Source of the DNA: a virus
Taxonomy: Duplodnaviria > Heunggongvirae > Uroviricota > Caudoviricetes
Strand: one strand, 5' to 3'
IMG/VR virus record: IMGVR_UViG_3300028887_000002
Coordinates: 212,278-276,277 of that record
Length of the DNA: 64,000 nucleotides
The position numbers and the translations under genes were made by a program. The notes below the pieces were generated by a model. That model made no database searches, was not told the DNA's origin, and worked only from the letters and a program-made list of their open reading frames with translations. Below, piece by piece: positions 24,364-53,844 of this stretch. Each line of letters opens with the position of its first letter. Position 1 is the first letter of the stretch.

Positions 24364-24389
24364 AATAAATGAAAATATTTTCTAATAAA

Positions 24390-24425
24390 TATTTGGTGTA
24401 TTGAAAAATAACAATTATTTTTGCC
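24390..24425 (+). promoter_or_regulatory. Bacteroidota-type promoter (TTTG 24393..24396, TATTTTTG 24416..24423); second copy of the conserved divergent promoter block
   Basis: Same architecture and about 80% identity to 3575..3615. It drives the small ORF at 24457 and, by read-through, tnpB. Confidence 0.6.
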
Positions 24426-24605: not shown

Positions 24606-25950
24606 ACTTGATACGCAACTACACATACCGCCTCTACTCCTCCAAGCACCACAAGGCTTTGGCGAGCCTCATCACGACGGCAAACCACACGTGGAACCAT
24701 ATCGTCGCCCTGTGCCACAGGTACTACCGCCGATACGGGAAGTCCGTGTCGGAGGGACAACTGAAGCGCCACATGGCGAAGATGGCGAAGAGGGACAGGT
24801 ATATGTCAAAGTTGCACTCACAGTCGCTCCAGGCAATATGTGAACGGTACGAGGACGCGCTGAAACAAGCCTTCAAGATAAAGGGTCGTGGATTGCCCCA
24901 CGCCCGAAGGATGTTCGGGAAAGGCTCGGTGCTGTTCAAGGGCAACGGTGGGTATGTCCTTGAAGCCGTAGGCAACAAGGGCGTACTGCGCATAAACAAA
25001 CTGGGGAAAAACTGGAAGTTCCGCTTCAAACTAACACGTCAGTGGGGCGAGGTAAGGAACGTCACGGTAAAAAGGGATGAAGACGGCTACTACTACCTGA
25101 CGGTATGCTGCAACGTCCCCGACGAACATCTCGAAAGGGAAGGTTACGCCTCCATCGGGATGGACTTCGGGATGAAGACGTTCCTCACGCTGTCGGACGG
25201 CACTGCCGTGCAGATTCCCGACTACCACAGGAAGGCGCTTGCCGAACTGAAGGCTGCCGACAGGTCGCTGTCGCACAAGCGCAACGCAAAGGTCTATGGT
25301 TCATCATACCGCAGGGCGAAACACCACAGGCAGGTCGCCTATGCCAAGGTCACCAACAGGCGGTCGGACTTCCACTGGAAACTCGCGCACGAACTGTGCA
25401 GGAAGTACAGTTTCATCGCCATCGAGGACTTGAACATGAAGTCCATGCAGATGCACAGGAACTGGGGAAGGAAGGTCTCTTCCCTTGGGTACTCGGAGTT
25501 TGTAATGAAACTCATGGTCGTTGCAGAGAAGTACGGTACGGTCGTCCACAAGATTGACCGCTGGTATGCATCCAGCCAGACTTGCAGCAAGTGCGGGTAT
25601 GTGTACAAGGGAACGAAAGACCTTAAAGTCCGCGAGTGGACTTGTCCTGTCTGCGGTACCGTCCACGACAGGGACGTGAACGCGGCTATTAACATATTGA
25701 ATGTCGCCTTAAACGACATAAGCGGGAAGGGCGTTTCCCGCGTCGGGAGCAATAGTAAGACCCCCAAGGGGCAACCCTCGGAGGCAGTTGCGCACGGGTC
25801 TTGCGACCCCGCTACCGACCAAGAATCCCACTCACTTTGATTTGTTTTCAACAGTGGTGGGAGTACGTCAATGGGCTTCAATTGAAGCACCATATCCCAA
25901 GAAACTGTTCCTTGAACAGCAACTGGAACTTGCACGGCTCGGCAGTATGA
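24606..25950 (+). mobile_element. IS200/IS605-family tnpB-only (IS1341-like) element, GC-rich insertion
   Basis: A block of roughly 55-60% GC with abrupt boundaries in ~35% GC DNA. It contains an intact tnpB plus about 105 nt of GC-rich 3' region with a perfect 14-nt palindrome (GCTTCAATTGAAGC) consistent with a right end / omega-RNA scaffold. Confidence 0.7.
24608..25840 (+). CDS. tnpB: TnpB (OrfB) RNA-guided RuvC-like nuclease, apparent TTG start
   Basis: N-terminal YTYRLY resembles the TnpB start. RuvC-I is GMDFG, RuvC-II is AIEDLN, the zinc finger is CSKCG...CPVCG and RuvC-III is DRDVNAAINI. Confidence 0.85.
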   Translation: MIRNYTYRLYSSKHHKALASLITTANHTWNHIVALCHRYYRRYGKSVSEGQLKRHMAKMAKRDRYMSKLHSQSLQAICERYEDALKQAFKIKGRGLPHARRMFGKGSVLFKGNGGYVLEAVGNKGVLRINKLGKNWKFRFKLTRQWGEVRNVTVKRDEDGYYYLTVCCNVPDEHLEREGYASIGMDFGMKTFLTLSDGTAVQIPDYHRKALAELKAADRSLSHKRNAKVYGSSYRRAKHHRQVAYAKVTNRRSDFHWKLAHELCRKYSFIAIEDLNMKSMQMHRNWGRKVSSLGYSEFVMKLMVVAEKYGTVVHKIDRWYASSQTCSKCGYVYKGTKDLKVREWTCPVCGTVHDRDVNAAINILNVALNDISGKGVSRVGSNSKTPKGQPSEAVAHGSCDPATDQESHSL

Positions 25951-27037: not shown

Positions 27038-27070
27038 TTTGGTAGTTTCAAAATAACCGATTATATTTGC
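27035..27070 (+). promoter_or_regulatory. Bacteroidota-type promoter (TTTG 27037..27040, TATATTTG 27061..27068)
   Basis: Matches the consensus with 20-nt spacing. Upstream of the gene at 27098. Confidence 0.55.
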
Positions 27071-27097: not shown

Positions 27098-27727
27098 ATG
27101 GGAGGAAACAAACATTGGATTTGTGAAACAATGGACGAAAAGGATGCAAGAGAATTGGCGGAAGATTGGGTAAAAAGTGGCGGACAGGTTCGTGAAGACG
27201 GCCCGCACGGTGGAAACAATACTGACCATTTACACTTGTTCTTGGACAATGACAAGAACAACGACGTTGTACTCAACTACACTCGTGGCACAGGCTACGA
27301 AGGAGAAGAAGACCACAGCGGAAGCAGTGACTCTTCGAGTTCAAACGACGATTACGACTGGCCTGACGACAACAGCGACAGTAGTAGTTCGGATGACGGC
27401 GGTTGCTTTATCACCACTGCGGTTTGCGGTTCATTGGGAAAACCCGACAACTGTGAGGAACTGACTTTGTTCAGACGTTTCCGCGACACATATATGCAAC
27501 AGACTGTTGACATGCGTTCGGATATCGCTGAATACTACGAGGTAGCACCAAAGATATGCACCGCCATTGATGCGCTTGGAAAGCAAAAGGTTGACAAGGT
27601 CTACGGACAGATATGGAACGAGATGCTTAAGCCGACCTTTAATGCGTTGAAGAAGGGAGAAATGGACAAGACGTATCGCCTTTATAAGGGAATGGTTATG
27701 ACATTGAAGAAAAAATATTTAAAATAG
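27098..27727 (+). CDS. hypothetical protein with Ser/Asp-rich low-complexity tract and GGCFITTAVCGS motif
   Basis: ORF. The motif is not confidently assignable to a known family. Confidence 0.5.
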   Translation: MGGNKHWICETMDEKDARELAEDWVKSGGQVREDGPHGGNNTDHLHLFLDNDKNNDVVLNYTRGTGYEGEEDHSGSSDSSSSNDDYDWPDDNSDSSSSDDGGCFITTAVCGSLGKPDNCEELTLFRRFRDTYMQQTVDMRSDIAEYYEVAPKICTAIDALGKQKVDKVYGQIWNEMLKPTFNALKKGEMDKTYRLYKGMVMTLKKKYLK

Positions 27728-29799: not shown

Positions 29800-29833
29800 G
29801 TTTGTTAGTATCAAAAAATCATTCTATTTTTGC
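29800..29833 (+). promoter_or_regulatory. Bacteroidota-type promoter (TTTG 29801..29804, TATTTTTG 29825..29832)
   Basis: Consensus match with 20-nt spacing. Implies the gene start is at 29854, not 29830. Confidence 0.5.
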
Positions 29834-30832: not shown

Positions 30833-30870
30833 TATTTGGTAGTTTGAAAAATATTGTTTTTCTTTGCACC
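30833..30870 (+). promoter_or_regulatory. Bacteroidota-type promoter with conserved AATATTTGGTAGTTTGAAAAAT upstream element
   Basis: TTTG at 30835..30838 and a TTTCTTTG -7-like element about 20 nt downstream. Followed by an AGAAAGGAAT Shine-Dalgarno-like sequence and the ATG at 30894. Confidence 0.5.
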
Positions 30871-30893: not shown

Positions 30894-31580
30894 ATGACAG
30901 ACTTTAGAAACTATGCAGTGAAGGGGCTTGGCATTAGTAGCAATGCCTTCGACCAGTACACAAAAAGTGTAAGTGCAAGATACGGAACAAGTTTCGTAAA
31001 CCCCACAATCATTGAGGAGAGACAACTGAACGTTGCACAAATGGATGTGTTCTCACGCCTTATGATGGACAGAATCATATTCATTGGCACCGACATTGAC
31101 GACTACACAGCAAATGTTGTAGAGGCACAACTTTTATATTTAAGTAGCGTTGATGAGAACAAGGACATATCATTGTACCTCAACACCCCTGGCGGTAGCG
31201 TATATGATGGACTTGCAATCTACGACACAATGCAGTATGTGAAATGTGATGTATCAACCGTATGTATGGGTATGGCCGCTTCAATGGGGTCAATTCTCCT
31301 ATCGGCTGGAACCAAGGGCAAACGATATGCATTGCCACACTCACGTGTCATGATACATCAGCCACTCGGCGGTATTTCACAGGCACAATGCTCCGACATT
31401 CAGATTACAGCCAACGAAATCCAAAAGTGCAAGGACGAACTCTTCAAGATATTGTCCGAGAATACTGGACAGCCGTTGGAGAAAATAAATACCGATGGCG
31501 ACAGGGACTTCTGGATGACGGCGAACGAGGCATTGAAATATGGTATTATTGATGAGATTTTTGGAAAGCAGGGAAAATAA
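30894..31580 (+). CDS. clpP: ATP-dependent Clp protease proteolytic subunit ClpP
   Basis: YLNTPGGSVYDGLAIYD, the Ser nucleophile in GMAASMGS, His in MIHQPLGG and DRDFWMTANEALKYGIID. Near-canonical bacterial ClpP along its full length. Confidence 0.85.
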   Translation: MTDFRNYAVKGLGISSNAFDQYTKSVSARYGTSFVNPTIIEERQLNVAQMDVFSRLMMDRIIFIGTDIDDYTANVVEAQLLYLSSVDENKDISLYLNTPGGSVYDGLAIYDTMQYVKCDVSTVCMGMAASMGSILLSAGTKGKRYALPHSRVMIHQPLGGISQAQCSDIQITANEIQKCKDELFKILSENTGQPLEKINTDGDRDFWMTANEALKYGIIDEIFGKQGK

Positions 31581-33183: not shown

Positions 33184-34281
33184 TCAATAACTGAAAACCT
33201 TGAAGACCTTTCGTTGCAAGTCACCATTTTCAACCCAGAGCATTTCAATTATATAATACCCATATATATTCAACCGTCTTGTCTCATATGGTTTTAGCCT
33301 TATGTCATATCTTATCCTCCCGTCGGGATAATATATATAGGCATCACAAATCCTGTCAATTCCAACAAGGCATATGCCATTCTCATAATATGCAGAAGGT
33401 GTAATCTTGACAACGGCAGGTTTCCTCATCGCAACGACAATGTCCGAATAATATGTTGCGGAATATGATGTGCTGTCCATCTGCTCGAACCTGTAGTATG
33501 TCGTGTCTGACGGCGGATTGTCATCAAGGAAGGAATAATAGGTGTTCTCAATTGAATTACCCCCACAAGCAGTCGAAACCCACGCAAAGTCAGTCCAGTC
33601 TATTGCATCGGTTGACCGTTGAAGTTTGAAGCCAGCGTTATGCTCCTCGGTGGCTGTCACCCATTCAAGAAGGTTGCCTTCGGGGTCGGTGTTGACCGTG
33701 AAGGATAGAAGGGTAATGGGTAAAGGGCTACTAACTTCCCAGTATATGAAAATAGTATCAAGATATATTGCATTCTGATAAGAACGTATTCCGATGTAAG
33801 AATAAGTACCTTGCAACAGGGTCAAGTCCAACTCTTCATCCTGGTCAAAACGTGTCCATATAAGTTCACCTAGTAAAGTTCCCCTTTCCCTATTATTAAA
33901 TAAATCATTGGGTGTTGCATATGGCGTGTTTTTTCCGTAGAACATCAGTTCTCTTGAATCATTGGTATTTTGCTGATGCCACTTTACACATATTTTGTTT
34001 ATAGTACCAATTTCTGTTGTTGTGACTATACCTTCATTTGAATTTTTAGTTCTTATCTTAAAACAATTTTGTTGAAAATTATCTTCGCCCCCACTATTAC
34101 CATTGTAAACAATGTCTGAATTAAATGATTTCTCCCAAGAAGAATAACTACTACCTAATATACCAATTGATTGTTGTGTTAAAGTATCTATTATTATGTT
34201 TTGCCCCCAAACAGTACCGTTTGCAAGCAGTCCCAGGGATGCTAACAATATCATAATCATTTGTCTTACAAATCTTTCCAT
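33184..34281 (-). CDS. secreted protein with N-terminal signal peptide and C-terminal Por/T9SS sorting domain
   Basis: Signal peptide MERFVRQMIMILLASLGLLANGTVWGQ. C-terminal ~80 aa (YYPDGRIRYDIRLKPYETRRLNIYGYYIIEMLWVENGDLQRKVFKV) fit the T9SS CTD pattern. Start taken at the ATG at 34279..34281. Confidence 0.6.
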   Translation of the reverse strand: MERFVRQMIMILLASLGLLANGTVWGQNIIIDTLTQQSIGILGSSYSSWEKSFNSDIVYNGNSGGEDNFQQNCFKIRTKNSNEGIVTTTEIGTINKICVKWHQQNTNDSRELMFYGKNTPYATPNDLFNNRERGTLLGELIWTRFDQDEELDLTLLQGTYSYIGIRSYQNAIYLDTIFIYWEVSSPLPITLLSFTVNTDPEGNLLEWVTATEEHNAGFKLQRSTDAIDWTDFAWVSTACGGNSIENTYYSFLDDNPPSDTTYYRFEQMDSTSYSATYYSDIVVAMRKPAVVKITPSAYYENGICLVGIDRICDAYIYYPDGRIRYDIRLKPYETRRLNIYGYYIIEMLWVENGDLQRKVFKVFSY

Positions 34282-34364
34282 ATGAATATAATTTTTCTTA
34301 TAAATATTTGTCCAACTGGATTTTTTGCAATAACTTTGCATCATCAATTATATAAGCATTAGAA

Positions 34365-34557: not shown

Positions 34558-34592
34558 TATTTGTTTTTCAGAAATTCCGATATATATTTGCA
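34558..34592 (+). promoter_or_regulatory. Bacteroidota-type promoter (TTTG 34560..34563, TATATTTG 34583..34590) for the DNA polymerase gene
   Basis: Consensus match with 19-nt spacing. Confidence 0.55.
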
Positions 34593-38155: not shown

Positions 38156-38800
38156 TTAACGAATATAGTTGCGGATGATACGGGAAACAGTTTCATTAAT
38201 ATTATTTTCCCTCCGATTTTTCCAACCCTCACCTTTAATATAATTTGTTCTACCATGAAGATAATTGTCTATAGTATGACCTATTTCGTTATTTTGTAGG
38301 AATTCTTTATATTCATCATCGGTTTCAAAATCATATTTTTCTCTGCCTATAGGAATATCACCATATTCTTCAAACTTACCATTCCAATCAATCTTTTCCA
38401 TATCCCTATCCCAATCAATATCATGAGGACTTTTATAGTGATACCCAAAGAATACAGGCCCAGTTGCATTACTTCCGTCAGACCACCAACCATCATTATC
38501 CTTTACATATACATCATCACCTATAGGCCGTAGTGATAAATTTCTACCAAATTGTTTAGACAAACCTTTGCTAGCACTTGTACTAAAATCTCTAGCTCTA
38601 TTATCTTCTTTTTTATATTCATTCCGATTTTTATCCCAATCGTCTCGTTTGGAAGGGTCAACATACCTTTTGTAAGCAGCGTCGGCTTTTTTCTGTGCCT
38701 TTCTTGCCGCATTCATATAAGTTTTCCAATCAAGTTCGTTGATTGCTTCTCTGACAATATTCCTTAGGTCAGATTCTGTAAGTCTAATTCTTTGTTTCAT
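38156..38800 (-). CDS. hypothetical protein with CTS-like N-terminus MKQRIRLTESDLRNIVREAINE and Trp/Asp/Glu-rich body (214 aa)
   Basis: N-terminal motif shared with the proteins at 48840..49190 and 3134..3553 and with the module at 22234..22596. Late-promoter-like element upstream. Confidence 0.6.
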   Translation of the reverse strand: MKQRIRLTESDLRNIVREAINELDWKTYMNAARKAQKKADAAYKRYVDPSKRDDWDKNRNEYKKEDNRARDFSTSASKGLSKQFGRNLSLRPIGDDVYVKDNDGWWSDGSNATGPVFFGYHYKSPHDIDWDRDMEKIDWNGKFEEYGDIPIGREKYDFETDDEYKEFLQNNEIGHTIDNYLHGRTNYIKGEGWKNRRENNINETVSRIIRNYIR

Positions 38801-38825: not shown

Positions 38826-38848
38826 TATGATTATAAATAGTACAAGAT
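38826..38848 (-). promoter_or_regulatory. putative phage late promoter element (minus-strand GTACTATTTATAATCATAATAAC, core TATTTAT at 38833..38839, 33 nt from the ATG)
   Basis: Conserved with the elements upstream of the capsid, scaffold and 48840 genes at similar spacing. Confidence 0.45.
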
Positions 38849-38869: not shown

Positions 38870-38904
38870 TCTTGTTACTTTCAAATATTTGATTTATCTT
38901 TGCA
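38870..38904 (+). promoter_or_regulatory. Bacteroidota-type promoter (TATCTTTG 38895..38902) for the methyltransferase gene
   Basis: Consensus -7 element. Upstream TTG(T) at 38872..38875 is a weak -33 element. Confidence 0.45.
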
Positions 38905-40475: not shown

Positions 40476-41609
40476 ATGGCAAAGGAAACTGAAAAGATGG
40501 AAAACAAGTTTGAATTGTATTCACCGAAGGAAATCAAGGCTCACCTTGACAACCACGTAATCGGACAGGAAGAAGCAAAGAAGATACTGTCGGTTGCAAT
40601 ATACAACCACTACAAGCGTATGCTTTCGACGAAGTATGACATCGGCAACGACAATCCAGCATACAAGGATGTGACAATAGAGAAGTCCAACATCATACTG
40701 CTCGGCAACACTGGTACTGGAAAGACATTCCTCGTACAGACAATTGCAAAGATGCTCGGTGTACCCCTGTTCATACAGGACTGCACCAAACTGACCGAAA
40801 GCGGTTATGTGGGAGAGGATGTAGAGAACTGCGTTGGCGGACTGCTTCGTGCCTGTGATTATGACGTTGAAAAGGCTGAAATGGGCATAGTAATACTTGA
40901 CGAGGTCGATAAGATTGCAAAGACCACAAAGGGCAATATGTCAATAACCCGTGACGTTGGTGGTGAAGGTGTACAGCAGGGTCTGCTGAAGATAGTTGAA
41001 GGAAGTGTTGTAGGCGTACCACCCCAGGGCGGTAGAAAGCACCCAGAACAGAAACTCGTGGAAGTCGATACACGCAACATATTGTTCATAGCACTTGGCG
41101 CATTCCCAGGCATCGACAAGGAGATTGAAAGACGTTTCAACAAGACAAGCGTTGGTTTCAGGAACTCTTCAGACACCAAGACAATATCAAACCTCACGCA
41201 GGACACAATCCTCGGCAAGGTAAAGGGCGATGACCTCAAGAACTTCGGACTTATACCAGAATTCGTAGGCAGGTTCCCAGTTATTACGCACACCAACCCG
41301 TTGAAGGTGGAGGATATGGTAAGGATTATCACCGAACCGCAGAACAGTCTTCTGAAGCAGTACCAGAAACTGATGGACATGGATAACGTTGACCTTGTGT
41401 TTACTGACGACGCCATAAGGATTGTCGCCGAGGAAGCGTTGAAGTGTGAAACGGGTGCAAGAGGTCTCAGGGGCATAATGGAACAGATACTCACCGACGT
41501 GATGTATGAATATGCCGAAACAAAAAAGAATACCAAACTCAAGATTGACAAGGCGTTCGTTGAAAAAATCCTCGGAGAGAAGGAAACACTTTACGGTGAA
41601 ACGGCTTAA
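40476..41609 (+). CDS. clpX: ClpX-like AAA+ unfoldase lacking the N-terminal C4 zinc-binding domain
   Basis: Walker A GNTGTGKTF, pore-1 loop GYVGEDVE, Walker B IVILDEVDKI, VGF in place of the IGF ClpP-docking loop, LIPEFVGRFPV and sensor-2 TGARGLR. Begins at the region that corresponds to about residue 60 of E. coli ClpX. Confidence 0.9.
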   Translation: MAKETEKMENKFELYSPKEIKAHLDNHVIGQEEAKKILSVAIYNHYKRMLSTKYDIGNDNPAYKDVTIEKSNIILLGNTGTGKTFLVQTIAKMLGVPLFIQDCTKLTESGYVGEDVENCVGGLLRACDYDVEKAEMGIVILDEVDKIAKTTKGNMSITRDVGGEGVQQGLLKIVEGSVVGVPPQGGRKHPEQKLVEVDTRNILFIALGAFPGIDKEIERRFNKTSVGFRNSSDTKTISNLTQDTILGKVKGDDLKNFGLIPEFVGRFPVITHTNPLKVEDMVRIITEPQNSLLKQYQKLMDMDNVDLVFTDDAIRIVAEEALKCETGARGLRGIMEQILTDVMYEYAETKKNTKLKIDKAFVEKILGEKETLYGETA

Positions 41610-41729: not shown

Positions 41730-43280
41730 TCAATCTTTCTTCTTCCATACATACTTGAACAGCCCGCAGTTCCATACACGGTCGTAGCCCAACTCACGGG
41801 TCATCTCGGTCTCGGTCATTGTAAGGGGAAGTCCGTATTTCTTATGGAGTATCTGCTTTCTAAACAAAAACTTATGGTATCTCTTGCATTCCCCTGTCTT
41901 ATAATATGTATAGTCTGGTTCGGTAATACTTTCAAGTTCAAATCCAAGATGTGTATATAGATTATCCGATGGGTTCAATGTCCACCTCCTGTCAGCAAAC
42001 GACTTTACTATTGTCGGGTTATAGTTCTTTATAAAATAAGAAAACAACTTTCCACCAACACCCTGACATATATATCGGCTGTCAGTCGCAAACCTCACAA
42101 GATTCCATTCTTCACCATTCTTTGTAAAAGACATAACCCCAATGAGAATATTTTCATAGTATGCACCAACATGGATGGTAGAATTCGCAAAACCCTGTAT
42201 GTGGTTGGCGTTTAAAAATGCTTCAGCGGTCTTCTTATCAAGAACACTTATATTGCATTTCCTTCCGCCAACTTTTGGCTTTGAATCATCATCAATTCCA
42301 AGCGAGTGGCATATCTTGTCGAATATTATATCCTTATGTTGTACATATTCATCCTCGAATATCTGAATAAGTCCGACACCCTTGCTATTGGCCAATAGTG
42401 TCTTGTTAAGGTGATATGACTTGTCCTTTCCGCCGAACCATTCCGAATGCCATCTAAGACCGTTATATTCAATCCCCACATTGAAACTGGGTATATATAT
42501 GTCAACCTCCAGTCCGTCAAGCAACGATTTGTCGTGTAATATAACCTTATCCTCACCCAACTTGTTGCATAGCATTTCATATATTTCAAGTTCGGCGTAT
42601 GAAAGGTGTTTCCCGCATTTAGGACAACCCTTCCCCTGCAATAACGCATCAGGATTCATTTTAAACACTCCGTGGGGCTTCCCGTTGGAACCAATCTTGT
42701 TACATATTATACTGACATCAATTTGGCTTGCCTTGTAGTCGACCAATGAATAGTCGTAGTCATCGTCCTTATGAACAGCCTTGCACTTCTCAATGAATGT
42801 TTCATTGTCATATCTGTTCCTTTCAGCATTCCTGTCAATTGTCAATCTCTTATGCGAACAACCTTTCAGATGCACCACTGGTTCCTGCCAGAATTCGCCA
42901 TACTCATTACCATCCGCATCAAGTTCACGACATATTATACAGACTGGTGTATGCATATTGACATATTCAACCTTAGAATAGTCAAGTTTCTCCCCCTTAT
43001 GCACCTGCTTGAAGCGTTCAACAACTTCCTCCGTTGTAAGCGACTTAGACCTTGAAATCTTATTGCCACGTTTCCTTGGGTGCGACTGCCCCTTGAACAG
43101 GTTGTTTGGTGTTGCCTTGAAAGCACCATATTCCTTACCGTTCTCGTCAAGGTCACGGTCTATTATAATGACGTTTGTTCGGTTGTTCACATATACGACC
43201 TCCGAAAAGTCAAGGTTCTCGTTGGGGTGGGACGCCTTGACCTTCTCAATGAACTCGTCCATTGTCATTCGCCTACTCAT
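41730..43280 (-). CDS. multi-domain nuclease-like protein, paralog 1 (three N-terminal ~55-aa Cys/His repeats, PD-(D/E)xK Vsr/DUF559-like core DIYIPS..IEYNG..WH, conserved C-terminal tail)
   Basis: Internal repeats FIEKxKxVH..DYSxVxY...IIC...G..HG.F..P..LL.G.GCPKCG. The C-terminal 40 aa are almost identical to those of the next gene (LHKKYGLPLTMTETEMTRELGYDRVWNCGLFKYVWKK). Confidence 0.55.
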   Translation of the reverse strand: MSRRMTMDEFIEKVKASHPNENLDFSEVVYVNNRTNVIIIDRDLDENGKEYGAFKATPNNLFKGQSHPRKRGNKISRSKSLTTEEVVERFKQVHKGEKLDYSKVEYVNMHTPVCIICRELDADGNEYGEFWQEPVVHLKGCSHKRLTIDRNAERNRYDNETFIEKCKAVHKDDDYDYSLVDYKASQIDVSIICNKIGSNGKPHGVFKMNPDALLQGKGCPKCGKHLSYAELEIYEMLCNKLGEDKVILHDKSLLDGLEVDIYIPSFNVGIEYNGLRWHSEWFGGKDKSYHLNKTLLANSKGVGLIQIFEDEYVQHKDIIFDKICHSLGIDDDSKPKVGGRKCNISVLDKKTAEAFLNANHIQGFANSTIHVGAYYENILIGVMSFTKNGEEWNLVRFATDSRYICQGVGGKLFSYFIKNYNPTIVKSFADRRWTLNPSDNLYTHLGFELESITEPDYTYYKTGECKRYHKFLFRKQILHKKYGLPLTMTETEMTRELGYDRVWNCGLFKYVWKKKD

Positions 43281-44958
43281 TGCTGACTCCTTTCTTCCAT
43301 ACGTACTTGAATAGTCCGCAGTTCCAGACGCGGTCGTAGCCCAACTCGCGGGTCATTTCGGTTTCGGTCATCGTGAGGGGTAGGCCGTACTTCTTGTGGA
43401 GTATCTGCTTGCGGAAGCCGAACTTGTGGAAACGCTTAGTTCCGTCAATCTTCTTGTTGTAGTAGTAATAGTCAGGCTTAATTGTCTGAACCATATTGAA
43501 ACCGAGTTTGGTATAAAGGTTATCCTCCGCCCACATAGTCCAGCGTCTGTCGGCAAATGTCTTTACTTCATCTACATTATAGTTTCTGATGAAATGTTTG
43601 AAGAGTTTACCGCCCACGCCTTGGCATACTGCGTCATATAGGCTAGCATATCTTGTGAGATTCCATTGACCTGGAGTTTCTTCAATAAAAGTCATAACGC
43701 CAACCAACGCATTATTATAGTATGCACCAAGATATAAACTTGAATTAGCAAAACCTTGTATATGGTTTGTTTCAAGGAATATTTTGGCAACATCCTTGCA
43801 TATTTCCGTTACAGTGCATTTTCGGCCAGGAATAACCGTTTGCCCTTCTATTCTTACGTTTAAGAGGTGACGTATCTTTGATAATACTAAATTCTTGTGA
43901 TGGATGAACTCGTCATCATATATATGTATTAGTCCAATACCGAGTTTGTTACACTCAATCGTCTTGTTTAAGTGATAGTTCCTGTCCTTGCCGTACTTTT
44001 CAGTATGCCACATATTTCCATCATATTCAATGGCAATCTTCTTTGAAGGTATATAAATGTCAAGTTCCCTACCTTTTAGGATTTTCCTGTCTGCATAACA
44101 ATCAAATCCCAATGACCTGATAAATTCCATTATTTCTAGTTCCGCACTGCTCTGACGCTTGAAGGTCATATTTTCATTAACAGCCGTCACCTGTTTAACG
44201 AGCAAGTCGTGGAATTCCTTTGATACAAGTGGAGTATCGTACAATTCTCGATATCTCAACTTATCCAGTCCATGCTTTTTCAAATGGACATTGTCAATAC
44301 GTGCGAGTTTTTCTCCGCATACTTGACATACAACAAATTTGTCAGGGTCGGTTTCCATTGAACGGTCTAAGGATTTATTTACTAACGCGAAATAAGGACG
44401 TTCTTCAGGGTGTTCTTCAAGATATTGAAACTTTGTCATATTATGGGTGTTCCTTAAATGCACCTCAAATGCACCACTCTTGTTATCCAAGTCTGTTGTA
44501 GTCCAATCACAATAAGGGCATTTTTTGGCTTCTTTGTCCTTTACTAATTTTACTTTCAGCCATTGTTCCCACCAGTAGTTTCCTGTACGTCTGTAATACA
44601 TTTGACGTTCATGTAACGACGGAGTTGGAATACCATACTCCTTCTCAATATAAGTTGTTAATACACCGCCCTTATTTCCAATATCAATACTTTCAAAGTC
44701 AGTTTTTTCGTCATACACGACATAGTGTGTCATATTGTCAGGCTCAGGGTATTTTTCAGTATGATAATCCTCCACGACATAATCGTATTTGAAACCTTGA
44801 TTACCCTTCTTTTTAATAGGTATATTGTTTCGGTCAAGAATTTCACGGATTCTTTTCTTTCCGACATGATGTTTTAAGGCTAAAGTTTCAATACGTTCTT
44901 CACCATTTATATATTCTTTGCAAATTTCAGTTTCATCCAATGATGTTTTCGCTTTCAT
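43273..44958 (-). CDS. multi-domain nuclease-like protein, paralog 2 (561 aa; ELDIYIPSKKIAIEYDGNMWH core, GNAT-like CQGVGGKLF motif)
   Basis: Same architecture as paralog 1. About 85% nucleotide identity over the 3' ~130 nt. Confidence 0.55.
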   Translation of the reverse strand: MKAKTSLDETEICKEYINGEERIETLALKHHVGKKRIREILDRNNIPIKKKGNQGFKYDYVVEDYHTEKYPEPDNMTHYVVYDEKTDFESIDIGNKGGVLTTYIEKEYGIPTPSLHERQMYYRRTGNYWWEQWLKVKLVKDKEAKKCPYCDWTTTDLDNKSGAFEVHLRNTHNMTKFQYLEEHPEERPYFALVNKSLDRSMETDPDKFVVCQVCGEKLARIDNVHLKKHGLDKLRYRELYDTPLVSKEFHDLLVKQVTAVNENMTFKRQSSAELEIMEFIRSLGFDCYADRKILKGRELDIYIPSKKIAIEYDGNMWHTEKYGKDRNYHLNKTIECNKLGIGLIHIYDDEFIHHKNLVLSKIRHLLNVRIEGQTVIPGRKCTVTEICKDVAKIFLETNHIQGFANSSLYLGAYYNNALVGVMTFIEETPGQWNLTRYASLYDAVCQGVGGKLFKHFIRNYNVDEVKTFADRRWTMWAEDNLYTKLGFNMVQTIKPDYYYYNKKIDGTKRFHKFGFRKQILHKKYGLPLTMTETEMTRELGYDRVWNCGLFKYVWKKGVSNE

Positions 44959-45124: not shown

Positions 45125-47068
45125 CTATCTCAATTCGAGAGTTGACCAGTGTACCAAACCGTCGCAACGGATTGCACCGTAGTAGCGGTTGTTAACGAGT
45201 TTCTTCGCGTAACGGGTCATGATACCCTTTACTGGTGCAAAGTTGAAAGGATTTGTTACAGTTGGGGTCAAAGCCATCGGGATATAAGGTGCATAGATGT
45301 AACCAGTATCCAAGAGGCTTGTTCCGTGGTGACCCATGATGAGTGACCAGTAAGGTGCATACGGGTCAACGATTACTTTGTAACGTCCCTGCAACGAACC
45401 AATCTTTTCGATACCCATGTTGTACTGTTCGCTTTCAGCAGAAGCGTCAGTTACGTGGAAGTATTCGAGGTCGTTAAGAACTGCGCTGATTTCAGCCGAT
45501 ACAACGATGAAGTTTGCACCGCCTTGAAGTGTCGACTTTTGGATTTGTGCCGAAATCATGTTAATCTTGGTCATAAGGGTCTGGTTCCAGTCCTTCTGAG
45601 TGTAAACGGTAGAAGTTGTACCAAGTCTCTGCCATCCGTTGTAGTCCCAACGAGCCTGCCATGGAGCAGCCTTACGAAGGTCGCGGAGGATTTCACGGTC
45701 AAGTTCTGCTGCAATCTGTTCAGAAAGGATTGCGGTAAGTTCTGCTTCAGCATCAATGTTGTGGAAAGCAGATACGTCCTGTGCCAATTCAGGTGACCAG
45801 GTTGCTCTCAACTTTCTTTCTTCAACAGCAACGGTAACTGAAGTGAGTTCGAACGATACTTCGCCCATTTCGGTTTCGAGTTCGAGTGAATCGTACTGAA
45901 TCCAAGCGATGTCGAACAACTGGCTTCCGTCAGTAGCGTTGTCAGTGTTAGGACTGCCGTTGGTGAACAATGCGCTAGCGTCAACACCGATATAGCCGTC
46001 AATAGTACCACCCTGTGCAGTGCAAGGCTTTGTGAGGTCAAGTTCGATATACAACTTACCCTGAGCATCACAGATGTCACCGTAGTTTACGGTGCCATGT
46101 CCGTACTTCTGAGTAACAACTCTGAAAGGAACAGATTCGTTCTGCTTGAAAGACGAGGTCTTCAAGGTGTCGCTACCTTCAACGGCAACTGGAGCGATTG
46201 CGTTCTTGGTGATAACCTTCAATGAAGCGAGGAATGCTTCGGTATCCATTTCGTTTCCGTCAGGACCTGTCAGACGACCTGCGTTGTATGAAGCGAAACC
46301 GCTAACTTCGAGGATAACAGATGCAACAGCACCGTTAAGCAACGGAAGTTCTTCTTCGCTTGCTACTGGAACGAATTCGCCGTTTTCAGCAAGTCTTACG
46401 ATGTCAGCCTTACCAACCTTGATGGTTGCCTTACCCTTCGAGTTATCATAGAGGAAATCATCATAGAACAAGTCGTAGAGCGATTTCTTCATATAGGTGG
46501 TAACTTCGGGTTCAGTAGTTCTGCTGCTGGTCTGAACTGGGTCAACTACTGTGTCGTCAAGATAGTAGCGGTTGTACTGCTCGTTGTATCTTGCATCCAG
46601 TGGAGTTGCTGGCCAAGTACCTGTTGGTTCTTCAGCGTTCTTGTCATAGAATCTGTTGGTTCTCTTGTAACCCATGAGACCAGTGTGGCTTCCTTGGTTA
46701 CCATCAACCATTTCGTCGTAATCCCACTTGCGTTCGCTGGTTACTGGACGGATGTAGAACAACTTACCTACTGGGAGGTTCATTGCCTGTACTGATACGA
46801 TGTCGTTAGCAAGGAGTTTGCTGAAGACACGTCTAATCAACGGGAACACTACGGTTTCGAACGAACCTGAGTTATCCGATGCAGTTGCTTCGTAGATAAG
46901 GTTCTTTGCCTGGTTTTCGTAAAGTGTTGCCATATTTTCCTTGATGTGACCGTTAAGGCCGTTAAGGAATCCGAGCTTATCCCATCTCTTCTGGATATCT
47001 TCGCGGATTTTCTTTTGTGCATCGTATTCAATTGAGCCGACTGCACCTGATGTTAAAAGTTCTCTCAT
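45125..47068 (-). CDS. major capsid protein, T4 gp23-like
   Basis: Multiple long blocks align to T4 gp23: VQAMNLPVGKLFYIRPV / VQPMNSPTGQVFALRAV; WSPELAQDVSAFHNIDAEAELTAILSEQI / YSIELAQDLRAVHGMDADAELSGILATEI; GANFIVVSAEISAVL / GNFIIASRNVVNVL; IYAPYIPMALTP / IYYAPYVALTP; NFAPVKGIMTRYA / NFQPVMGFKTRYG. Start taken at the ATG at 47066..47068. Confidence 0.9.
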   Translation of the reverse strand: MRELLTSGAVGSIEYDAQKKIREDIQKRWDKLGFLNGLNGHIKENMATLYENQAKNLIYEATASDNSGSFETVVFPLIRRVFSKLLANDIVSVQAMNLPVGKLFYIRPVTSERKWDYDEMVDGNQGSHTGLMGYKRTNRFYDKNAEEPTGTWPATPLDARYNEQYNRYYLDDTVVDPVQTSSRTTEPEVTTYMKKSLYDLFYDDFLYDNSKGKATIKVGKADIVRLAENGEFVPVASEEELPLLNGAVASVILEVSGFASYNAGRLTGPDGNEMDTEAFLASLKVITKNAIAPVAVEGSDTLKTSSFKQNESVPFRVVTQKYGHGTVNYGDICDAQGKLYIELDLTKPCTAQGGTIDGYIGVDASALFTNGSPNTDNATDGSQLFDIAWIQYDSLELETEMGEVSFELTSVTVAVEERKLRATWSPELAQDVSAFHNIDAEAELTAILSEQIAAELDREILRDLRKAAPWQARWDYNGWQRLGTTSTVYTQKDWNQTLMTKINMISAQIQKSTLQGGANFIVVSAEISAVLNDLEYFHVTDASAESEQYNMGIEKIGSLQGRYKVIVDPYAPYWSLIMGHHGTSLLDTGYIYAPYIPMALTPTVTNPFNFAPVKGIMTRYAKKLVNNRYYGAIRCDGLVHWSTLELR

Positions 47069-47087: not shown

Positions 47088-47109
47088 CTTATTTGTTAAA
47101 TAAATATTC
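47088..47109 (-). promoter_or_regulatory. putative phage late promoter element upstream of the capsid gene (minus-strand GAATATTTATTTAACAAATAAG, core TATTTAT at 47100..47106)
   Basis: Conserved motif and spacing (about 32 nt to the ATG) shared with the scaffold, 48840 and 38156 upstream regions. The downstream AAATTGATTATAATG is shared with the 38156 leader. Confidence 0.45.
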
Positions 47110-47130: not shown

Positions 47131-48672
47131 TTATTTTAAGCGTTCAACCCTCTCCATCAGACTGATGGTCTTCTTGAGGTCGTCGCTCAGAAGTGTTGTT
47201 TCTACTAACTTGTTATTTTCTGAAGATGACTTGCTTTCGGTGATAGGTGTGCCGTTGAGTGTCTTCTTGATGTCGTTAATCGGGTGGCTCCTCTTAAGTT
47301 CCTCGTTAATTTGGGTATAGAGTGCCTTCGACTCGTTGATGGACTTAACAGCGTTGAACCTGTTGATAATATTCATCTTCTCTTCCTTGGTTGTCGAGTT
47401 CTCAGTGACAAGTTTTATAATCTTTGCGAGGCTGCTGTTGACTACGGTGGCTTCATTCAACTGCTTTGTGATTTTTGCCGCGATATTCTTCAACTGTTTG
47501 TTCTCTGCAAGGATTGCGTTTGCCTTTCTGCGGAGGTTTTCGTTCATACCTTCTACAGTACCTTCGTATTCGCCATTGTCTCTTGAAATCGCGTGGCTTC
47601 CGTAAGCAGTGGAATCCTTTTCGGACTTCAATGTCTTGTGCATTCCACGTTCGTTTCCATGTCCGAAGCGTGACTGTTCCTCAAGTGCTTCGTCATATTC
47701 GTAGTCGAAGTCAAACTCTTCGGTATCATCATCGCCATAGTCAGCAAGCAAATCTTCGGTAAAGTCTTCGTCCTCGATGTAGTCCTTACCGAATTCGCGT
47801 CTCATAGCATTCTTTGCGGCACGTTTGCTACTTGGATTCCTTCTTTCGTCAGTTTCCTCGTCGCATTCAAGGCATACTTCGTAGAGAGGTTCCTCGCCCT
47901 TCTTGACTTCCTTTGAGTAAGGAGTTGAATCGCCAGCATCTCCGACCCAGCGCTTAACGTTGTTCTTTGCGCCCTTCGGAACACCGCCGTCGAAATCCAT
48001 ACCACCCTTACGTCCGTCATCAGCGGGCATGGTCATCGCACTCTTGTCCTGGTAACCGCCAGTGTAACCAAGGTTATCCGACTCGTTCATCATAGTTGTG
48101 TCGTCTGTTTCAAAATTATTATCGGCTTCCCCACTCAGGTCAATGATATATTCCTTGTCCGTAGTGTCATCGGTCAGTGTCAGATTGTCGCCGTTCATTA
48201 CAACGCGAACGCCGTCCTCTGGGGTGACCGTTTGGAACACCTTGTGCAATTGGGCATCATTCATTCCCGTGCAGTCATATTCGCCGTCACCGCATTTGAA
48301 CTGTTCAAGTTCATCGTCCCATGTCGTGTCTTCTTCACCTGTCTCTGGTGCTTCAGTAGCATCAGTTGCGAGGTCTTCCGTACCTGCTACCGTTTCGGTT
48401 TCGCCTTCTGGCGTTGCTTCTGCGGTTTCGGTTTCCACATCGGTTACCTGTTCAGTCTCTGGAGTGGACGGGATATCTTCCTTCTGGTAGGTATCGTCCT
48501 CTTTCTTTGTTTCTTCCTTCTTTTCGGAAAGAATTTCCCTCAAGTTCTGGTTTACTGCTTCTCCGAGGAGGTTCTTCAACGATTCCTTCGTGCTTTTTAC
48601 GAATTCTTCATCGAGAGCCTTCTTTTCGCTAACCAGGTTCTTGATATATTCGCTTCTAATTTTACTAGCCAT
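47131..48672 (-). CDS. acidic prohead scaffold/core protein (gp22-like by position and composition, 513 aa)
   Basis: Immediately upstream of the gp23-like gene. Highly acidic with coiled-coil termini and many (L/I)-x-E motifs. Confidence 0.5.
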   Translation of the reverse strand: MASKIRSEYIKNLVSEKKALDEEFVKSTKESLKNLLGEAVNQNLREILSEKKEETKKEDDTYQKEDIPSTPETEQVTDVETETAEATPEGETETVAGTEDLATDATEAPETGEEDTTWDDELEQFKCGDGEYDCTGMNDAQLHKVFQTVTPEDGVRVVMNGDNLTLTDDTTDKEYIIDLSGEADNNFETDDTTMMNESDNLGYTGGYQDKSAMTMPADDGRKGGMDFDGGVPKGAKNNVKRWVGDAGDSTPYSKEVKKGEEPLYEVCLECDEETDERRNPSSKRAAKNAMRREFGKDYIEDEDFTEDLLADYGDDDTEEFDFDYEYDEALEEQSRFGHGNERGMHKTLKSEKDSTAYGSHAISRDNGEYEGTVEGMNENLRRKANAILAENKQLKNIAAKITKQLNEATVVNSSLAKIIKLVTENSTTKEEKMNIINRFNAVKSINESKALYTQINEELKRSHPINDIKKTLNGTPITESKSSSENNKLVETTLLSDDLKKTISLMERVERLK

Positions 48673-48693: not shown

Positions 48694-48715
48694 GTTATTT
48701 TTAAAAATAAATATA
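48694..48715 (-). promoter_or_regulatory. putative late promoter element upstream of the scaffold gene (minus-strand TATATTTATTTTTAAAAATAAC, core at 48707..48713)
   Basis: Same core and spacing (35 nt) as the capsid upstream element. Confidence 0.4.
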
Positions 48716-48839: not shown

Positions 48840-49190
48840 CTACCACTTCAAATCTGAGACATCATTTATCGCGTTAGGAATCTCAATTGCACCAAATTCA
48901 ATTAGTTCAATCTCCTTATTTGTGCTGTCGGCTGGATTTATCTTTCCGCTAACATCAGTGATGTCTATTATATCGTAGTGTGGAAATTCCCTGCGTACTT
49001 TTTTCACAGCTTCCTTGTCCGAACCAGTTTCAGATATTGCGGCAACAAAAATTATATCGTCAGTCTCGTTGTAACACTCAATGCACTTCACGTACAAATC
49101 ACCAATATCTTCCTTCAGTACTCTCTTGACGGATTCCTTAACAATATTGCGCAAGTCTGATTCGTTAAGTCTTATAACTTTCTTTGTCAT
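48840..49190 (-). CDS. small prohead core / internal-protein candidate with CTS-like N-terminus MTKKVIRLNESDLRNIVKESVKRVLKE (116 aa)
   Basis: Sits at the position of T4 gp67/gp68 (just upstream of the scaffold and capsid genes). Carries the shared N-terminal motif. Late-promoter-like element upstream. Confidence 0.55.
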   Translation of the reverse strand: MTKKVIRLNESDLRNIVKESVKRVLKEDIGDLYVKCIECYNETDDIIFVAAISETGSDKEAVKKVRREFPHYDIIDITDVSGKINPADSTNKEIELIEFGAIEIPNAINDVSDLKW

Positions 49191-49221: not shown

Positions 49222-49240
49222 GTTTATAAATAGTTCCCCG
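49222..49240 (-). promoter_or_regulatory. putative late promoter element (minus-strand ACTATTTATAAACATAAAA, core at 49226..49232, 36 nt from the ATG)
   Basis: Near-identical to the element upstream of the 38156 gene. Confidence 0.45.
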
Positions 49241-49789: not shown

Positions 49790-49826
49790 TTATTTGGTAG
49801 TTTCAAAAATAGTGTATATATTTGCA
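49790..49826 (+). promoter_or_regulatory. Bacteroidota-type promoter (TTTG 49793..49796, TATATTTG 49817..49824), followed by the conserved 25-nt leader at 49839..49863
   Basis: Consensus match with 20-nt spacing. Confidence 0.55.
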
Positions 49827-52034: not shown

Positions 52035-52559
52035 ATGGTGAAGATGTTTAACAAAAAAAGAAAGGAAATTAATATGATTGAAAATTGGGTTTATAATGAC
52101 ATTGTCCTTTATTCAAAAGGATGGTACAAGAGCCACGGAAATATGGTAGAAGACCTTGGTTATTTGTTCACCAAGATTTACGGATGGACACCGACCACAG
52201 AGGAAGAAGTTGCAAGAATGATGCTTCGCGTTATCGACAAGTTATATGAGGCGAAGGAAGTGAAGTTTTCATCGGGTTCCTATATGAAGTCATTTGAATA
52301 TCTGTTCAATGAAATTAACCACAAAGTACGATTTTATAACAAATCATATTCATTAGCAACGATTGAGATATGTTTATCAATATTGTTTGACTTAGATACG
52401 TCCGAGATAAAGTTAAATCCACCCCACTACGGAAAGAAGGAACATTTTAGGCTTGGCGGTTTTCAAAATTATCCAATAAGTATGACCTATAGTTCCGTTT
52501 TTCATAGTAAACTATTGAAAAACATTCTTTTCCTGCTTCGCCGAGCCACAACTTCTTAG
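52035..52559 (+). CDS. hypothetical protein whose last ~10 codons lie in GC-rich IS DNA (C-terminus probably altered by the insertion)
   Basis: The AT-rich ORF runs into the GC-rich block at about 52530 and terminates inside it. Confidence 0.45.
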   Translation: MVKMFNKKRKEINMIENWVYNDIVLYSKGWYKSHGNMVEDLGYLFTKIYGWTPTTEEEVARMMLRVIDKLYEAKEVKFSSGSYMKSFEYLFNEINHKVRFYNKSYSLATIEICLSILFDLDTSEIKLNPPHYGKKEHFRLGGFQNYPISMTYSSVFHSKLLKNILFLLRRATTS

Positions 52560-53741
52560 GCCACTCGCGTGACGGTCGTCCATTGGAGGGTTCTCCACAG
52601 GCGTGAATTCGGGCGAACTCAGCCCTACTCCTAATATTCTAAGCCCCTCGTCCCTGATATTCAGGGCGGCGTTGAGGTCGCGGTCGATGACCGCCCCGCA
52701 ACTGGGGCATATCCATTCCCTGTCGTTCAGGGTCAGGTCTCTCTTGATATATCCGCAGTCGTGGCACGTCTTGCTTGACGGGTAGAACCGTCCCACGAGG
52801 ACGAGCGTCCGCCCGTACCACTGGCACTTGTATTCCATCATCCTGCGGAACTCGCCGAGGTTCACCTCGCATATGCTCTCGGCGAGGCGGTGGTTCCTGG
52901 TCATCCCCTTGACGTTCAAGTCCTCCATGCAAACGACTTGGTTTTCGTCGATTAACTTGTTGGAAACGTCGTGGAGATACCAGTCCTTCCTGTGGCATAC
53001 CTTCTCGTATGCCTTGGCGAGCCTTATCCTCGCCTTGTCCCTGTTTTTACTGCCTACCTGCTTGTGGGACAACTGTCGGTGAAGCCTTTTCAGCCTCTTC
53101 GAGACGGACTTCTTGAAGTGCATGTTCGCATAGCGCGTACCGTCGCTTGCAATAACGAAGTCCTTCACTCCGAGGTCAATGCCTATGATGCCCTTGGCGT
53201 CGCTGCGCTGTTCGACCTCGCATTCGATTAGTACTGACAGCAGGTACTTCCCGCTTGCGCCCCTCGTGAGGGTCAGCGACCTCACGCTCGACTGCTGGCG
53301 GTTGAGGGTTATCTCGTCCAGTCTGGAGCACTTGAAGTGGATGTCGGACAGTTTCTTCGTCAGGTCGATGCGGTTGCCCCTTATGCCGATAAAAGCATCG
53401 GATGGGAAACGGCAGGATTCCACGTTGGAGTGCTTGCGCGACTTGAACTTCGGGAAGCCCCTGTGGTGCTTGAAGAAATTGTCGTAGGCGGTGTTCATGT
53501 CCCTAACAGCCTGTTGAAGTACCTTCGAGTGTGCATCCTTCAGCCAGGGGAACTCCTTTTTCAAGTCAACGAGGTGTTTTATTGCATCAACGCCCGATAC
53601 GGATTTGTTTTCCTTCTCGTAGGCATCCTTTCGGTAGGCAAGGCACTTGTTGAAGACAAAACGGCAGCAACCGAGCAACTGGTTGATTATGCGCTGTTGT
53701 TCGTCCGTCGGGTAGAGCCGTATCTTTATAGCCTTCAACAT
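52512..53741 (-). CDS. tnpB: TnpB (OrfB) RNA-guided RuvC-like nuclease
   Basis: N-terminus MLKAIKIRLYPTDEQQ, RuvC-I GIDLG, RuvC-II CMEDLN, zinc finger CHDCG...CPSCG and RuvC-III DRDLNAALNI. Confidence 0.85.
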   Translation of the reverse strand: MLKAIKIRLYPTDEQQRIINQLLGCCRFVFNKCLAYRKDAYEKENKSVSGVDAIKHLVDLKKEFPWLKDAHSKVLQQAVRDMNTAYDNFFKHHRGFPKFKSRKHSNVESCRFPSDAFIGIRGNRIDLTKKLSDIHFKCSRLDEITLNRQQSSVRSLTLTRGASGKYLLSVLIECEVEQRSDAKGIIGIDLGVKDFVIASDGTRYANMHFKKSVSKRLKRLHRQLSHKQVGSKNRDKARIRLAKAYEKVCHRKDWYLHDVSNKLIDENQVVCMEDLNVKGMTRNHRLAESICEVNLGEFRRMMEYKCQWYGRTLVLVGRFYPSSKTCHDCGYIKRDLTLNDREWICPSCGAVIDRDLNAALNIRDEGLRILGVGLSSPEFTPVENPPMDDRHASGLRSCGSAKQEKNVFQ

Positions 53742-53807: not shown

Positions 53808-53844
53808 TATTTTGGTAGTTTGGAAAAGACGTTGTATCTTTGTC
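53808..53844 (+). promoter_or_regulatory. Bacteroidota-type promoter (TTTG 53811..53814, TATCTTTG 53835..53842)
   Basis: Consensus match with 20-nt spacing. Confidence 0.55.

Follow-up and report, generated by a model that had tools for sequence, protein, structure and literature searches.

The window analysed here is a stretch of 64,000 nucleotides (positions 212,278 to 276,277) of the IMG/VR virus record IMGVR_UViG_3300028887_000002, from a virus of the class Caudoviricetes. It was examined together with 10 kb on each side, that is, 84 kb or about 25% of a 339-kb contig. The gene under study is the open reading frame (ORF) at 45125-47068 on the minus strand, which is preceded by a gene for an acidic protein and followed by an endonuclease-like ORF and its tandem paralogue; the coordinates of these and of other features are collected in Table 1. 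By its profile and structure-database matches, the ORF encodes a major capsid protein of the gp23 family. The ATG at 47068 was accepted as the start codon because the N-terminus MRELL... is common to the relatives. The product matched the Pfam family PF07068 with an E value of 4e-71 (240.8 bits, cut-off 24.4), and among the solved structures of the PDB it matched only T4 gp23 (E ~ 1e-25) and gp24 (E = 4e-7). The 14 top Foldseek matches of a model predicted with AlphaFold2 (AF2) from 55 close homologues were all T4 gp23 or gp24, the model itself being poor (predicted local distance difference test score, pLDDT, of 50). An earlier note, made from the letters of the window alone, had described a gp23-type capsid that aligns block by block with T4 gp23, and both statements were confirmed: the conserved blocks were collinear in the PDB search and in a multiple alignment. 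Capsid residues 72-110, with the block 'P.irR....L.A.divsVQPm..P.G', paired with residues 28-66 of mature gp23, and the PDB search paired residues 401-621 with gp23 247-478. In the multiple alignment with T4 the propeptide aligned too, with KW..L..EG followed by ENQ and then by an L-x-E|A maturation site (the bar marks the cleavage position).

An identical capsid protein occurs on the JGI metagenome contig Ga0310696_10000014 (3300031993), which measures 339,275 bp. The capsid homologues scored number at least 8000; identity was 69-100% for the best 120, whose contigs reach about 390 kb; IMG/VR held more than 600 capsid relatives, some of them on contigs of 295-412 kb. Since the relatives number thousands, with contigs reaching about 410 kb, they constitute a widespread jumbo-phage clade, and the window belongs to an uncultured jumbo phage of approximately 339 kb within this very widespread metagenomic clade. 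The standard genetic code yielded long uninterrupted ORFs in the window. A megablast search of 20 kb of the window against 50,697 GenBank phages gave no match at the DNA level. The capsid protein, searched by tblastn against 50,697 phage records, gave 2589 gp23-type matches, all below 60% identity, the best being Rhodothermus phage RM378, Microcystis phage Mel-JY01, Flavobacterium phage immuto and the "huge phage" LR756508.

The capsid tree was constructed by the neighbour-joining method from 382 well-aligned columns, with 100 bootstraps, and rooted on T4 gp24. The clade of the window was grouped with LR756511, LR756508, immuto, Mel-JY01 and RM378 (87% bootstrap), and a separate group (83% bootstrap) comprised T4, a KVP40-like vibriophage, cyanophage S-SKS1, phiM12, Det7, a Campylobacter phage and RaK2/XaC1. 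The members of the first group are the nearest sequenced relatives, with capsid identities of 32-38% (36-38% for immuto and Mel-JY01), compared with 25% to T4 gp23 over 381 aligned columns. The genomes of the cultured relatives measure 130-190 kb, against about 340 kb in the clade of the window. According to this tree, the capsid is a deep branch of the gp23 family and is not nested in the classical T4-like radiation. The earlier note had proposed a T4-like lineage and had named a capsid placed outside the T4-like clades as an outcome contrary to it; the capsid was found outside the group of T4, the cyanophages and Ackermannviridae, which is that outcome in part.

The motif (L/I)(L/I)xE|(A/S) at residues 57-61 of the capsid protein was kept in the clade even at 50% identity, as LIYE|A (E60/A61) here and as LINE|A, LLNE|S or LLTE|A in relatives. 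In the multiple alignment LIYE|A lines up with the T4 cleavage site LTE|A, and cleavage of the gp21 type would be expected at this position. The stretch between the conserved blocks has 291 aa in this protein and 269-321 aa in the members of the clade. It is longer than in RM378, immuto, Mel-JY01, LR756508 and LR756511, the nearest outgroups, which all carry long insertions of 146-182 aa, and than in T4 (116 aa) and RaK2 (47 aa). No internal repeat or duplication was found in the insertion, nor any BLAST-detectable similarity beyond the clade. Four hypervariable patches (residues ~141-160, 221-240, 281-300 and 361-380) were recognised, in which the column identity among 55 clade members was 21-49%, against 88-99% in the capsid core; this pattern suggests an exposed surface under diversifying pressure. 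The AF2 model is too poor as a whole to describe the insertion, which appeared beta-rich in it, with a local pLDDT of 70-83. With its roughly 290 residues, the insertion is probably exposed on the outside of the capsid, where it would form an integral domain that stabilises or decorates a large shell.

The acidic protein encoded directly upstream of the capsid gene has a pI of 4.49 and 23% aspartate plus glutamate, and T4 gp22 has a pI of 4.58 and 22%. Of 80 related loci, about 75 have an acidic ORF of 400-600 aa immediately before the capsid gene, and homology to the upstream ORF of the window was detectable in 68 of the 80. The ORF of the window had no Pfam or PHROG match, a phmmer comparison with gp22 of T4, phiM12, S-SKS1 and Det7 was not significant, and only a weak C-terminal similarity to the equivalent protein of immuto was detected. 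It is probably the scaffolding protein; its previous description as gp22-like holds for position and composition and not for sequence, in which no similarity to gp22 was detected. Acidic ORFs also precede the capsid genes of the cultured relatives RM378, immuto and Mel-JY01, the gene order in immuto being gp20, protease, acidic ORF and capsid gene.

In 74-77 of the 80 related loci, among them 24 of 24 close relatives, a gene for a gp21-like protease precedes the capsid gene by 2-5 kb, and at least 33 of the 80 have a gp20-like portal gene upstream of it. Because the relatives keep these homologues beside the capsid gene, the order portal-protease-scaffold-shell was considered ancestral to the clade. 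No gp24-like vertex paralogue was present near the capsid gene. In comparison with T4 gp23 (PDB 5VF3, 7VS5, 6UZC), both proteins belong to PF07068 and have a propeptide ending in (L/I)-x-E|A, and upstream of each lies the gene of an acidic, scaffold-like protein. The T4-type head proposed previously is thus in accordance with the gp23 capsid, the conserved propeptide site of gp21 type and the acidic scaffold-like gene upstream. In the proposed pathway, the capsid protein would assemble on the acidic scaffold around the portal, and a prohead protease of the gp21 type, with its gene in another part of the genome, would cut at LIYE|A, removing some 60 residues from the N-terminus, and digest the scaffold; this head-assembly module would share its stock of origin with that of T4. 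The ClpP subunit encoded in the window was considered as prohead protease and rejected, as it is a near-equivalog of cellular ClpP, belongs to an early operon 14 kb off, and the relatives use a gp21-type protease.

The pattern TTTG-N17-21-TAnnTTTG occurred 12 times in the window, against 2.5 expected, and none of 100 shuffles reached 12; TAnnTTTG alone was not enriched (78 observed, 67 expected). Eleven elements of the form TTTG-N19/20-TAnnTTTG, nine exact and two with one mismatch, constituted a family with the extended consensus AATATTTGGTAGTTTCAAAAATA-N5-TATATTTGC. All 11 were on the plus strand, 22-157 nt upstream of plus-strand genes, and ten were intergenic, the one at 34560-34590 overlapping a doubtful 60-aa ORF of the minus strand. 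The form TTTG-N18-20-TAHHTTTG was found 11 times in the window (0.8 expected) and, among 80 relatives, 31 times in the close ones (5.1 expected) and 34 times in the distant ones (11.2 expected); in 35 kb of T4 it was not found. The promoter consensus of Bacteroidetes at -33/-7 is TTTG/TANNTTTG (PMC6847099). The elements of the phage share with the sigma-ABfr promoters of Bacteroidota the -33 TTTG, the -7 TAnnTTTG, the spacing of 19-20 nt and the A/T-rich tract between both elements (PMC6847099), and differ in that the consensus shared by the phage copies is much longer, which points to a strong promoter optimised by the phage or to an additional site for a regulator. They are predicted promoters of the Bacteroidota sigma-A type, which the host RNA polymerase with the primary sigma factor of Bacteroidota would read as 11 strong promoters before plus-strand (early/middle) operons. 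The earlier note had reported this pattern before essentially every early gene; the pattern is present, but it heads operons, with about one element each. A conserved GAAAGGA was observed about 10 nt upstream of the ATG in several of the first genes after early promoters (30894, 40476, 49870, 57731 and 58780).

The minus-strand capsid cluster has no early promoter, and the heptamer TATTTAT is found instead about 40 nt upstream. It was located 27-42 nt upstream of the starts of the capsid gene, the scaffold gene and others that have no early promoter; of the 30 copies in the window, 12 lay within 70 nt upstream of a start in sense orientation, and 11 were counted in upstream windows, where local shuffles gave 4.1 ± 2.2. 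The element is conserved as GTGTATATTTATA, 41-52 nt upstream of the capsid gene, in about 17 close relatives. The element is unlike the TATAAATA of T4, and these data suggest a separate class of late promoters. Additionally, the ORF at 9289-9987 is probably a small phage-encoded sigma factor. A profile of 51 relatives matched only sigma factors in the PDB (SigA 1e-3, T4 gp55 0.13), BLASTP gave 8e-4, and hhalign against T4 gp55 gave a probability of 60% and an E value of 8.6e-5 over 116 columns. It had 851 representative metagenome relatives, and among sequenced phages its relatives were found only in Mel-JY01 and LR756508. The candidate may be gp55-like and act on late genes, in which case the TATTTAT of the capsid cluster would possibly be read with this small sigma factor of the phage itself.

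The host is most likely a member of Bacteroidota, and most likely of Bacteroidales, as four independent lines, the promoters, the ClpP subunit, the scarcity of Shine-Dalgarno cores and the binning of relatives in metagenome-assembled genomes (MAGs), agree with the host that had been proposed previously. ClpP matched PRK14514 over its full length with 359 bits (cut-off 361), as a near-equivalog. Its nearest named cellular homologues (63-68% identity) belong to Muribaculaceae, Bacteroidales and Rikenellaceae, and with its N-terminal extension it was matched at full length only in genomes of Bacteroidota. A Shine-Dalgarno-like core was detected in 13 of 77 genes (17%), and few such sites are expected in Bacteroidetes (PMC6847099). 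Relatives of the capsid and spike proteins were binned in MAGs of Paludibacteraceae and Bacteroidales, and the hosts of two of the closest cultured relatives by capsid, Flavobacterium and Rhodothermus, are of the Bacteroidota type. No tRNA genes were present for host inference. A host outside Bacteroidota, with TTTG...TAnnTTTG as a phage-specific look-alike and ClpP acquired from a bystander, was considered very improbable. In its favour, there is no CRISPR or prophage link, the MAG label is 'Bacilli' for one capsid relative and 'Clostridiales' for one ClpP relative, and a cyanobacterium is the host of Mel-JY01, the closest cultured relative by capsid. On the other hand, the elements, spacing and orientation of the promoters fit the published consensus (PMC6847099), with all 11 close upstream of genes, and the motif is absent from the 35 kb of T4; the extension of ClpP and the scarce Shine-Dalgarno sites point in the same direction, and the MAG labels are mostly Bacteroidales.

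The DNA polymerase of the window belongs to family B and, contrary to what a T4-like lineage would suggest, is not gp43-like: by tblastn it matched only Salinibacter phages and cyanophages of the A-1(L)/N1 type and none of the T4-likes, and T4 gp43 gave only 10 bits. The tblastn alignments extended only to residue ~856, and the Pfam and PHROG matches ended by residue 641. The C-terminal ~300 residues of the polymerase aligned to nothing. No homologue of gp18, gp19, gp20, gp21, gp44, gp45, gp46/47 or UvsW was found in the 84 kb. A PHROG search with 20 large ORFs gave almost no matches, and for this reason the tail and baseplate genes were not assigned by sequence. A true T4-like phage, with a core genome of the Straboviridae type, which had switched to a Bacteroidota host and had its promoters replaced, is therefore to be weighed against these data. 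It would account for a capsid of the gp23 family, for the gp21- and gp20-like genes of the relatives and for a possibly gp55-like sigma factor. It does not agree with the placement of the capsid outside the clade of T4, the KVP40-like phage, the cyanophages and Ackermannviridae, with the polymerase, with the absence of tail or baseplate PHROG matches for any of the 20 large ORFs, although T4 proteins should be in that library, or with a genome of twice the size of T4 and mostly orphan genes, and was judged improbable.

The structure of the predicted spike was also examined. The ORF at 13568-14479 matched the Pfam family Phage_base_V only with an E value of 0.22, and its AF2 model, built from 57 diverse homologues, reached a pLDDT of 85. 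Foldseek matched it, with probabilities of 0.95-1.00, to 7aef_q (2e-5), 9vzk_q (5e-5), 8kea_D, 4s37, 8gra_G, 1wth and 3qr8. The matches were central spikes of contractile systems, namely of the Algoriphagus extracellular contractile injection system, phage P1, cyanophage A-1(L), R2 pyocin, VgrG, T4 gp5 (1wth, probability 0.99) and P2 gpV (3qr8). As judged from this model, it is a central spike of the gp5/gpV/VgrG type, and the hub gene previously claimed at this position was thus borne out by structure only. The OB-fold N-terminal domain and the spike architecture are alike in P2 gpV, T4 gp5, the R2 pyocin spike and VgrG, and the lysozyme domain of T4 gp5 is absent here. The HxH near the C-terminus resembles that of iron-binding spike tips. 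As the protein is common to all contractile systems, it is no marker of T4-likes. Two paralogous ORFs of ~125-130 aa (MSWIKQISDRVN... and MGWIKTISSRVN...), of no known family, were observed just upstream of the spike gene, at 12584-12979 and 12984-13358 on the plus strand.

A second alternative is a mosaic, in which the T4-type head module (capsid, scaffold, protease and portal) was gained sideways by an unrelated jumbo backbone; the capsid would then say little on the lineage of the remaining genome. In its favour, the polymerase is kin to those of Salinibacter and A-1(L)-type phages and not to gp43, the capsid gene is physically apart from the protease and portal genes in this genome, and most other genes are orphans. 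However, the sigma-like gene and the capsid have the same nearest phage relatives (Mel-JY01 and LR756508), and therefore shared descent of at least two unlinked modules is indicated; moreover, gp23 capsid, sigma factor and family-B polymerase have been treated as one coherent group (PMC7824862). The mosaic origin was considered doubtful. The 'group 2' jumbo phages of Iyer et al. 2021 (PMC7824862) are delimited by a gp23-type capsid, a family-B polymerase and phage sigma factors, together with the lack of an RNA polymerase; they are derived there from T4-like ancestors, and phages of Bacteroidetes, such as the Prevotella Lak megaphage and the Tenacibaculum phage PTm1, are among the members listed. 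A genome larger than 200 kb (339,275 bp), a gp23-type capsid and a family-B polymerase are all present here, together with the sigma-like ORF (a weak match), and no RNA polymerase family was found among the window ORFs. The UvsW-type helicase of the group was not seen in the 84 kb, and this phage appears to use the standard code, whereas Lak genomes were translated with tables 11 and 15 (PMC7824862). By group traits, the phage fits the group 2 jumbo phages, and the combination is already known.

Taken together, we hold with considerable confidence that this is a jumbo phage with a head module of the same stock as that of T4, placed outside the classical T4-likes and most likely infecting a host of Bacteroidales. 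Several points weigh against this reading. Only about a quarter of the genome was looked at, and the capsid tree, with gp24 as its root, was built by neighbour joining and not by maximum likelihood. No gp21-like protease or gp20-like portal gene was found in the window and its flanks, so that the maturation pathway is extrapolated from the relatives; the head module would be split or rearranged in this genome, with the protease gene elsewhere. The position and role of the capsid insertion are deduced only indirectly, because the AF2 model is poor. The TATTTAT motif is only moderately enriched (z about 3), and the link of the sigma candidate to gp55 is weak. Finally, no CRISPR-spacer match or other direct link to a host was obtained, and the TnpB gene at 52512-53741, a further route to such a link, had no close copy in 185,579 species genomes.

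A gene for a C-terminal sorting domain of the type IX secretion system (T9SS), claimed in the earlier note, was not recovered: PF18962, TIGR04183 and TIGR04131 were not found in the window ORFs. Among 69 ORFs there was no such Pfam match at E ≤ 1e-3, and no NCBIfam match among the best 25 of 49 families. The candidate chosen by eye (33184-34344, minus strand) and its isolated C-terminus gave none at E ≤ 1 or E ≤ 10, the PDB gave none, and none was present in the ORF running off the end of the window. The product of 33184-34344 is a secreted protein: its signal peptide begins at an internal Met (MERFVRQMIMILLASLGLLANGTVWGQ), and its C-terminal tail is beta-rich. It had no relatives in IMG/VR. 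It is likely the source of the claim, with a similarity to T9SS domains only by eye.

A recurring motif, 'IRLTES(D/Q)L(R/K)x(I/V)(V/I)...' ending in (L/I)xE, was found mostly at the N-terminus of ORFs, with four strong and two weaker cases (Table 1). The endings VLKE|D, AINE|L, ILNE|S and VINE|M represent the same type of site as the capsid propeptide, and all four strong cases follow a TATTTAT element. In the small ORF at the head of the capsid cluster, the N-terminal 27-38 aa recur in six related loci. The ORF at 22234-24363, of 709 aa, has an N-terminal ART-PolyVal ADP-ribosyltransferase domain (Pfam, 7.3e-5) and an internal IRLTESQL, and recalls the head-packaged Alt enzyme of T4. By analogy with the internal proteins and Alt of T4, the tag might, speculatively, be a capsid-targeting or propeptide signal. 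A more far-reaching and rather unlikely reading would be an undescribed family-level jumbo lineage of Bacteroidales in which the head programme of T4 was elaborated, with the capsid insertion as a surface module for decoration or host interaction and the tags loading effectors into the head for injection.

The endonuclease-like ORF directly downstream of the capsid gene matched the Pfam families MTES_1575 (1.8e-6), ROS_MUCR and Vsr and was present in only 19 of 80 related loci; its tandem paralogue was present in 23. The C-terminal 294 aa of these overlapping ORFs are 57% identical. T4 likewise has an endonuclease gene (segD) immediately after its capsid gene, and RM378 (HNH) and Campylobacter phage F358 also place one at this capsid-adjacent spot; both ORFs are likely mobile genes of the homing type. 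A ClpX/HslU-like unfoldase (AAA_2 and ClpB_D2-small) is encoded at 40476-41609 on the plus strand, and it and ClpP each lie behind or near an early promoter; the pair may constitute a phage-borne ClpXP system. At least two TnpB-type RNA-guided nucleases of the IS605/IS607 type were observed, at 24773-25840 (plus strand, possibly from 24608) and 52512-53741 (minus strand, IS605-type), and a third TnpB-like ORF lies just beyond the window, at 18027-19781 of the flank sequence. The 10 kb on each side of the window revealed only a UvrD-type helicase and a TnpB-like gene. The ORF at 27098-27727 (plus strand) has a CFI-box-CTERM domain (NCBIfam NF041770, 3.7e-13, above cut-off) around 'GGCFITTAVC'. 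A cluster of glycosyltransferase genes (8350-9180 and 17555-21025, plus strand) follows the spike/baseplate region. The glycosyltransferase families GT2, GT92, DUF4422 and rhamnosyl-transferase-like were recorded by Pfam among the window ORFs; the genes at 17555-21025 were assigned by inspection, and only 8350-9180 was scanned singly (weak GT2). These enzymes may act in virion or DNA glycosylation.

Table 1. Features of the window, with positions in the window (residue numbers for the capsid insertion); promoters and functions are predicted.
Feature	Position	Strand	Basis or remarks
Major capsid protein, gp23 family, 647 aa	45125-47068	-	Pfam PF07068, PDB, Foldseek
Insertion region of capsid, 291 aa, clade-specific	residues 111-400		Alignment
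Putative scaffolding (prohead core) protein, 513 aa, acidic, helical C-terminus	47131-48672	-	Position, composition
Small ORF, 116 aa, head of capsid cluster	48840-49190	-	N-terminal IRLNESDL...VKRVLKE|D
Endonuclease-like ORF, 561 aa, directly downstream of capsid gene	43273-44958	-	Vsr/MTES_1575 nuclease, zinc-ribbon
Tandem paralogue of endonuclease-like ORF, 516 aa	41730-43280	-	DUF723 repeats, GNAT-like C-terminus (Pfam 1.7e-4)
Candidate late promoter element TATTTAT	47100-47106	-	38 nt upstream of capsid ATG
TATTTAT, second copy	48707-48713	-	Upstream of scaffold gene
TATTTAT, further copies	49226-49232, 38833-38839, 24385-24391, 3574-3580	-	
TATTTAT, copy	9998-10004	+	
Phage sigma factor candidate, 232 aa	9289-9987	+	Profile, hhalign
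Early promoter 1	3581-3612	+	-33 TTTG / -7 TAnnTTTG; 32 nt upstream of gene 3644
Early promoter 2	24392-24423	+	
Early promoter 3	27038-27069	+	29 nt upstream of gene 27098
Early promoter 4	29801-29832	+	22 nt upstream of gene 29854
Early promoter 5	30835-30866	+	Upstream of clpP; -7 element is the variant TTTCTTTG
Early promoter 6	34560-34590	+	68 nt upstream of polymerase gene
Early promoter 7	38871-38902	+	Upstream of Dcm methylase gene; -33 element is the variant CTTG
Early promoter 8	49793-49824	+	46 nt upstream of gene 49870
Early promoter 9	53811-53842	+	157 nt upstream of gene 53999
Early promoter 10	57668-57699	+	32 nt upstream of gene 57731
Early promoter 11	58695-58725	+	55 nt upstream of gene 58780
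ClpP protease subunit, Bacteroidota type	30894-31580	+	NCBIfam PRK14514
Family-B DNA polymerase, 1141 aa	34658-38083	+	Pfam DNA_pol_B and exo1, phrog_262
Central baseplate spike	13568-14479	+	gp5/gpV/VgrG-type OB fold, C-terminal THTHP (HxH)
Tag motif, strong cases	48840-49190, 38156-38800, 3134-3553, 22234-24363 (~aa 595)	-	
Tag motif, weaker case	15277-16086	+	
Tag motif, weaker case	2718-3110	-	

As a whole, the earlier interpretation stands as regards the head module and the host; "T4-like" was overstated and the T9SS assignment was wrong. The value of the present data is incremental, since gp23-type jumbo phages of Bacteroidetes were already recognised (PMC7824862), as were Bacteroidota as the commonest predicted host in catalogues of gut jumbo phages (PMC11662467). 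Most worth attention are the capsid insertion, with its large size and hypervariable patches, and the tags that may target proteins to the capsid, and a clean set of 11 strong promoters of the Bacteroidota type, as predicted here, is available for use. A very abundant clade of uncultured phages, with genomes of about 340 kb, is thus documented by the window; its indicated hosts, Bacteroidota, dominate gut and rumen communities, and in this clade the head plan of T4 (portal, protease, scaffold and gp23 shell) reaches beyond Proteobacteria and cyanobacteria.

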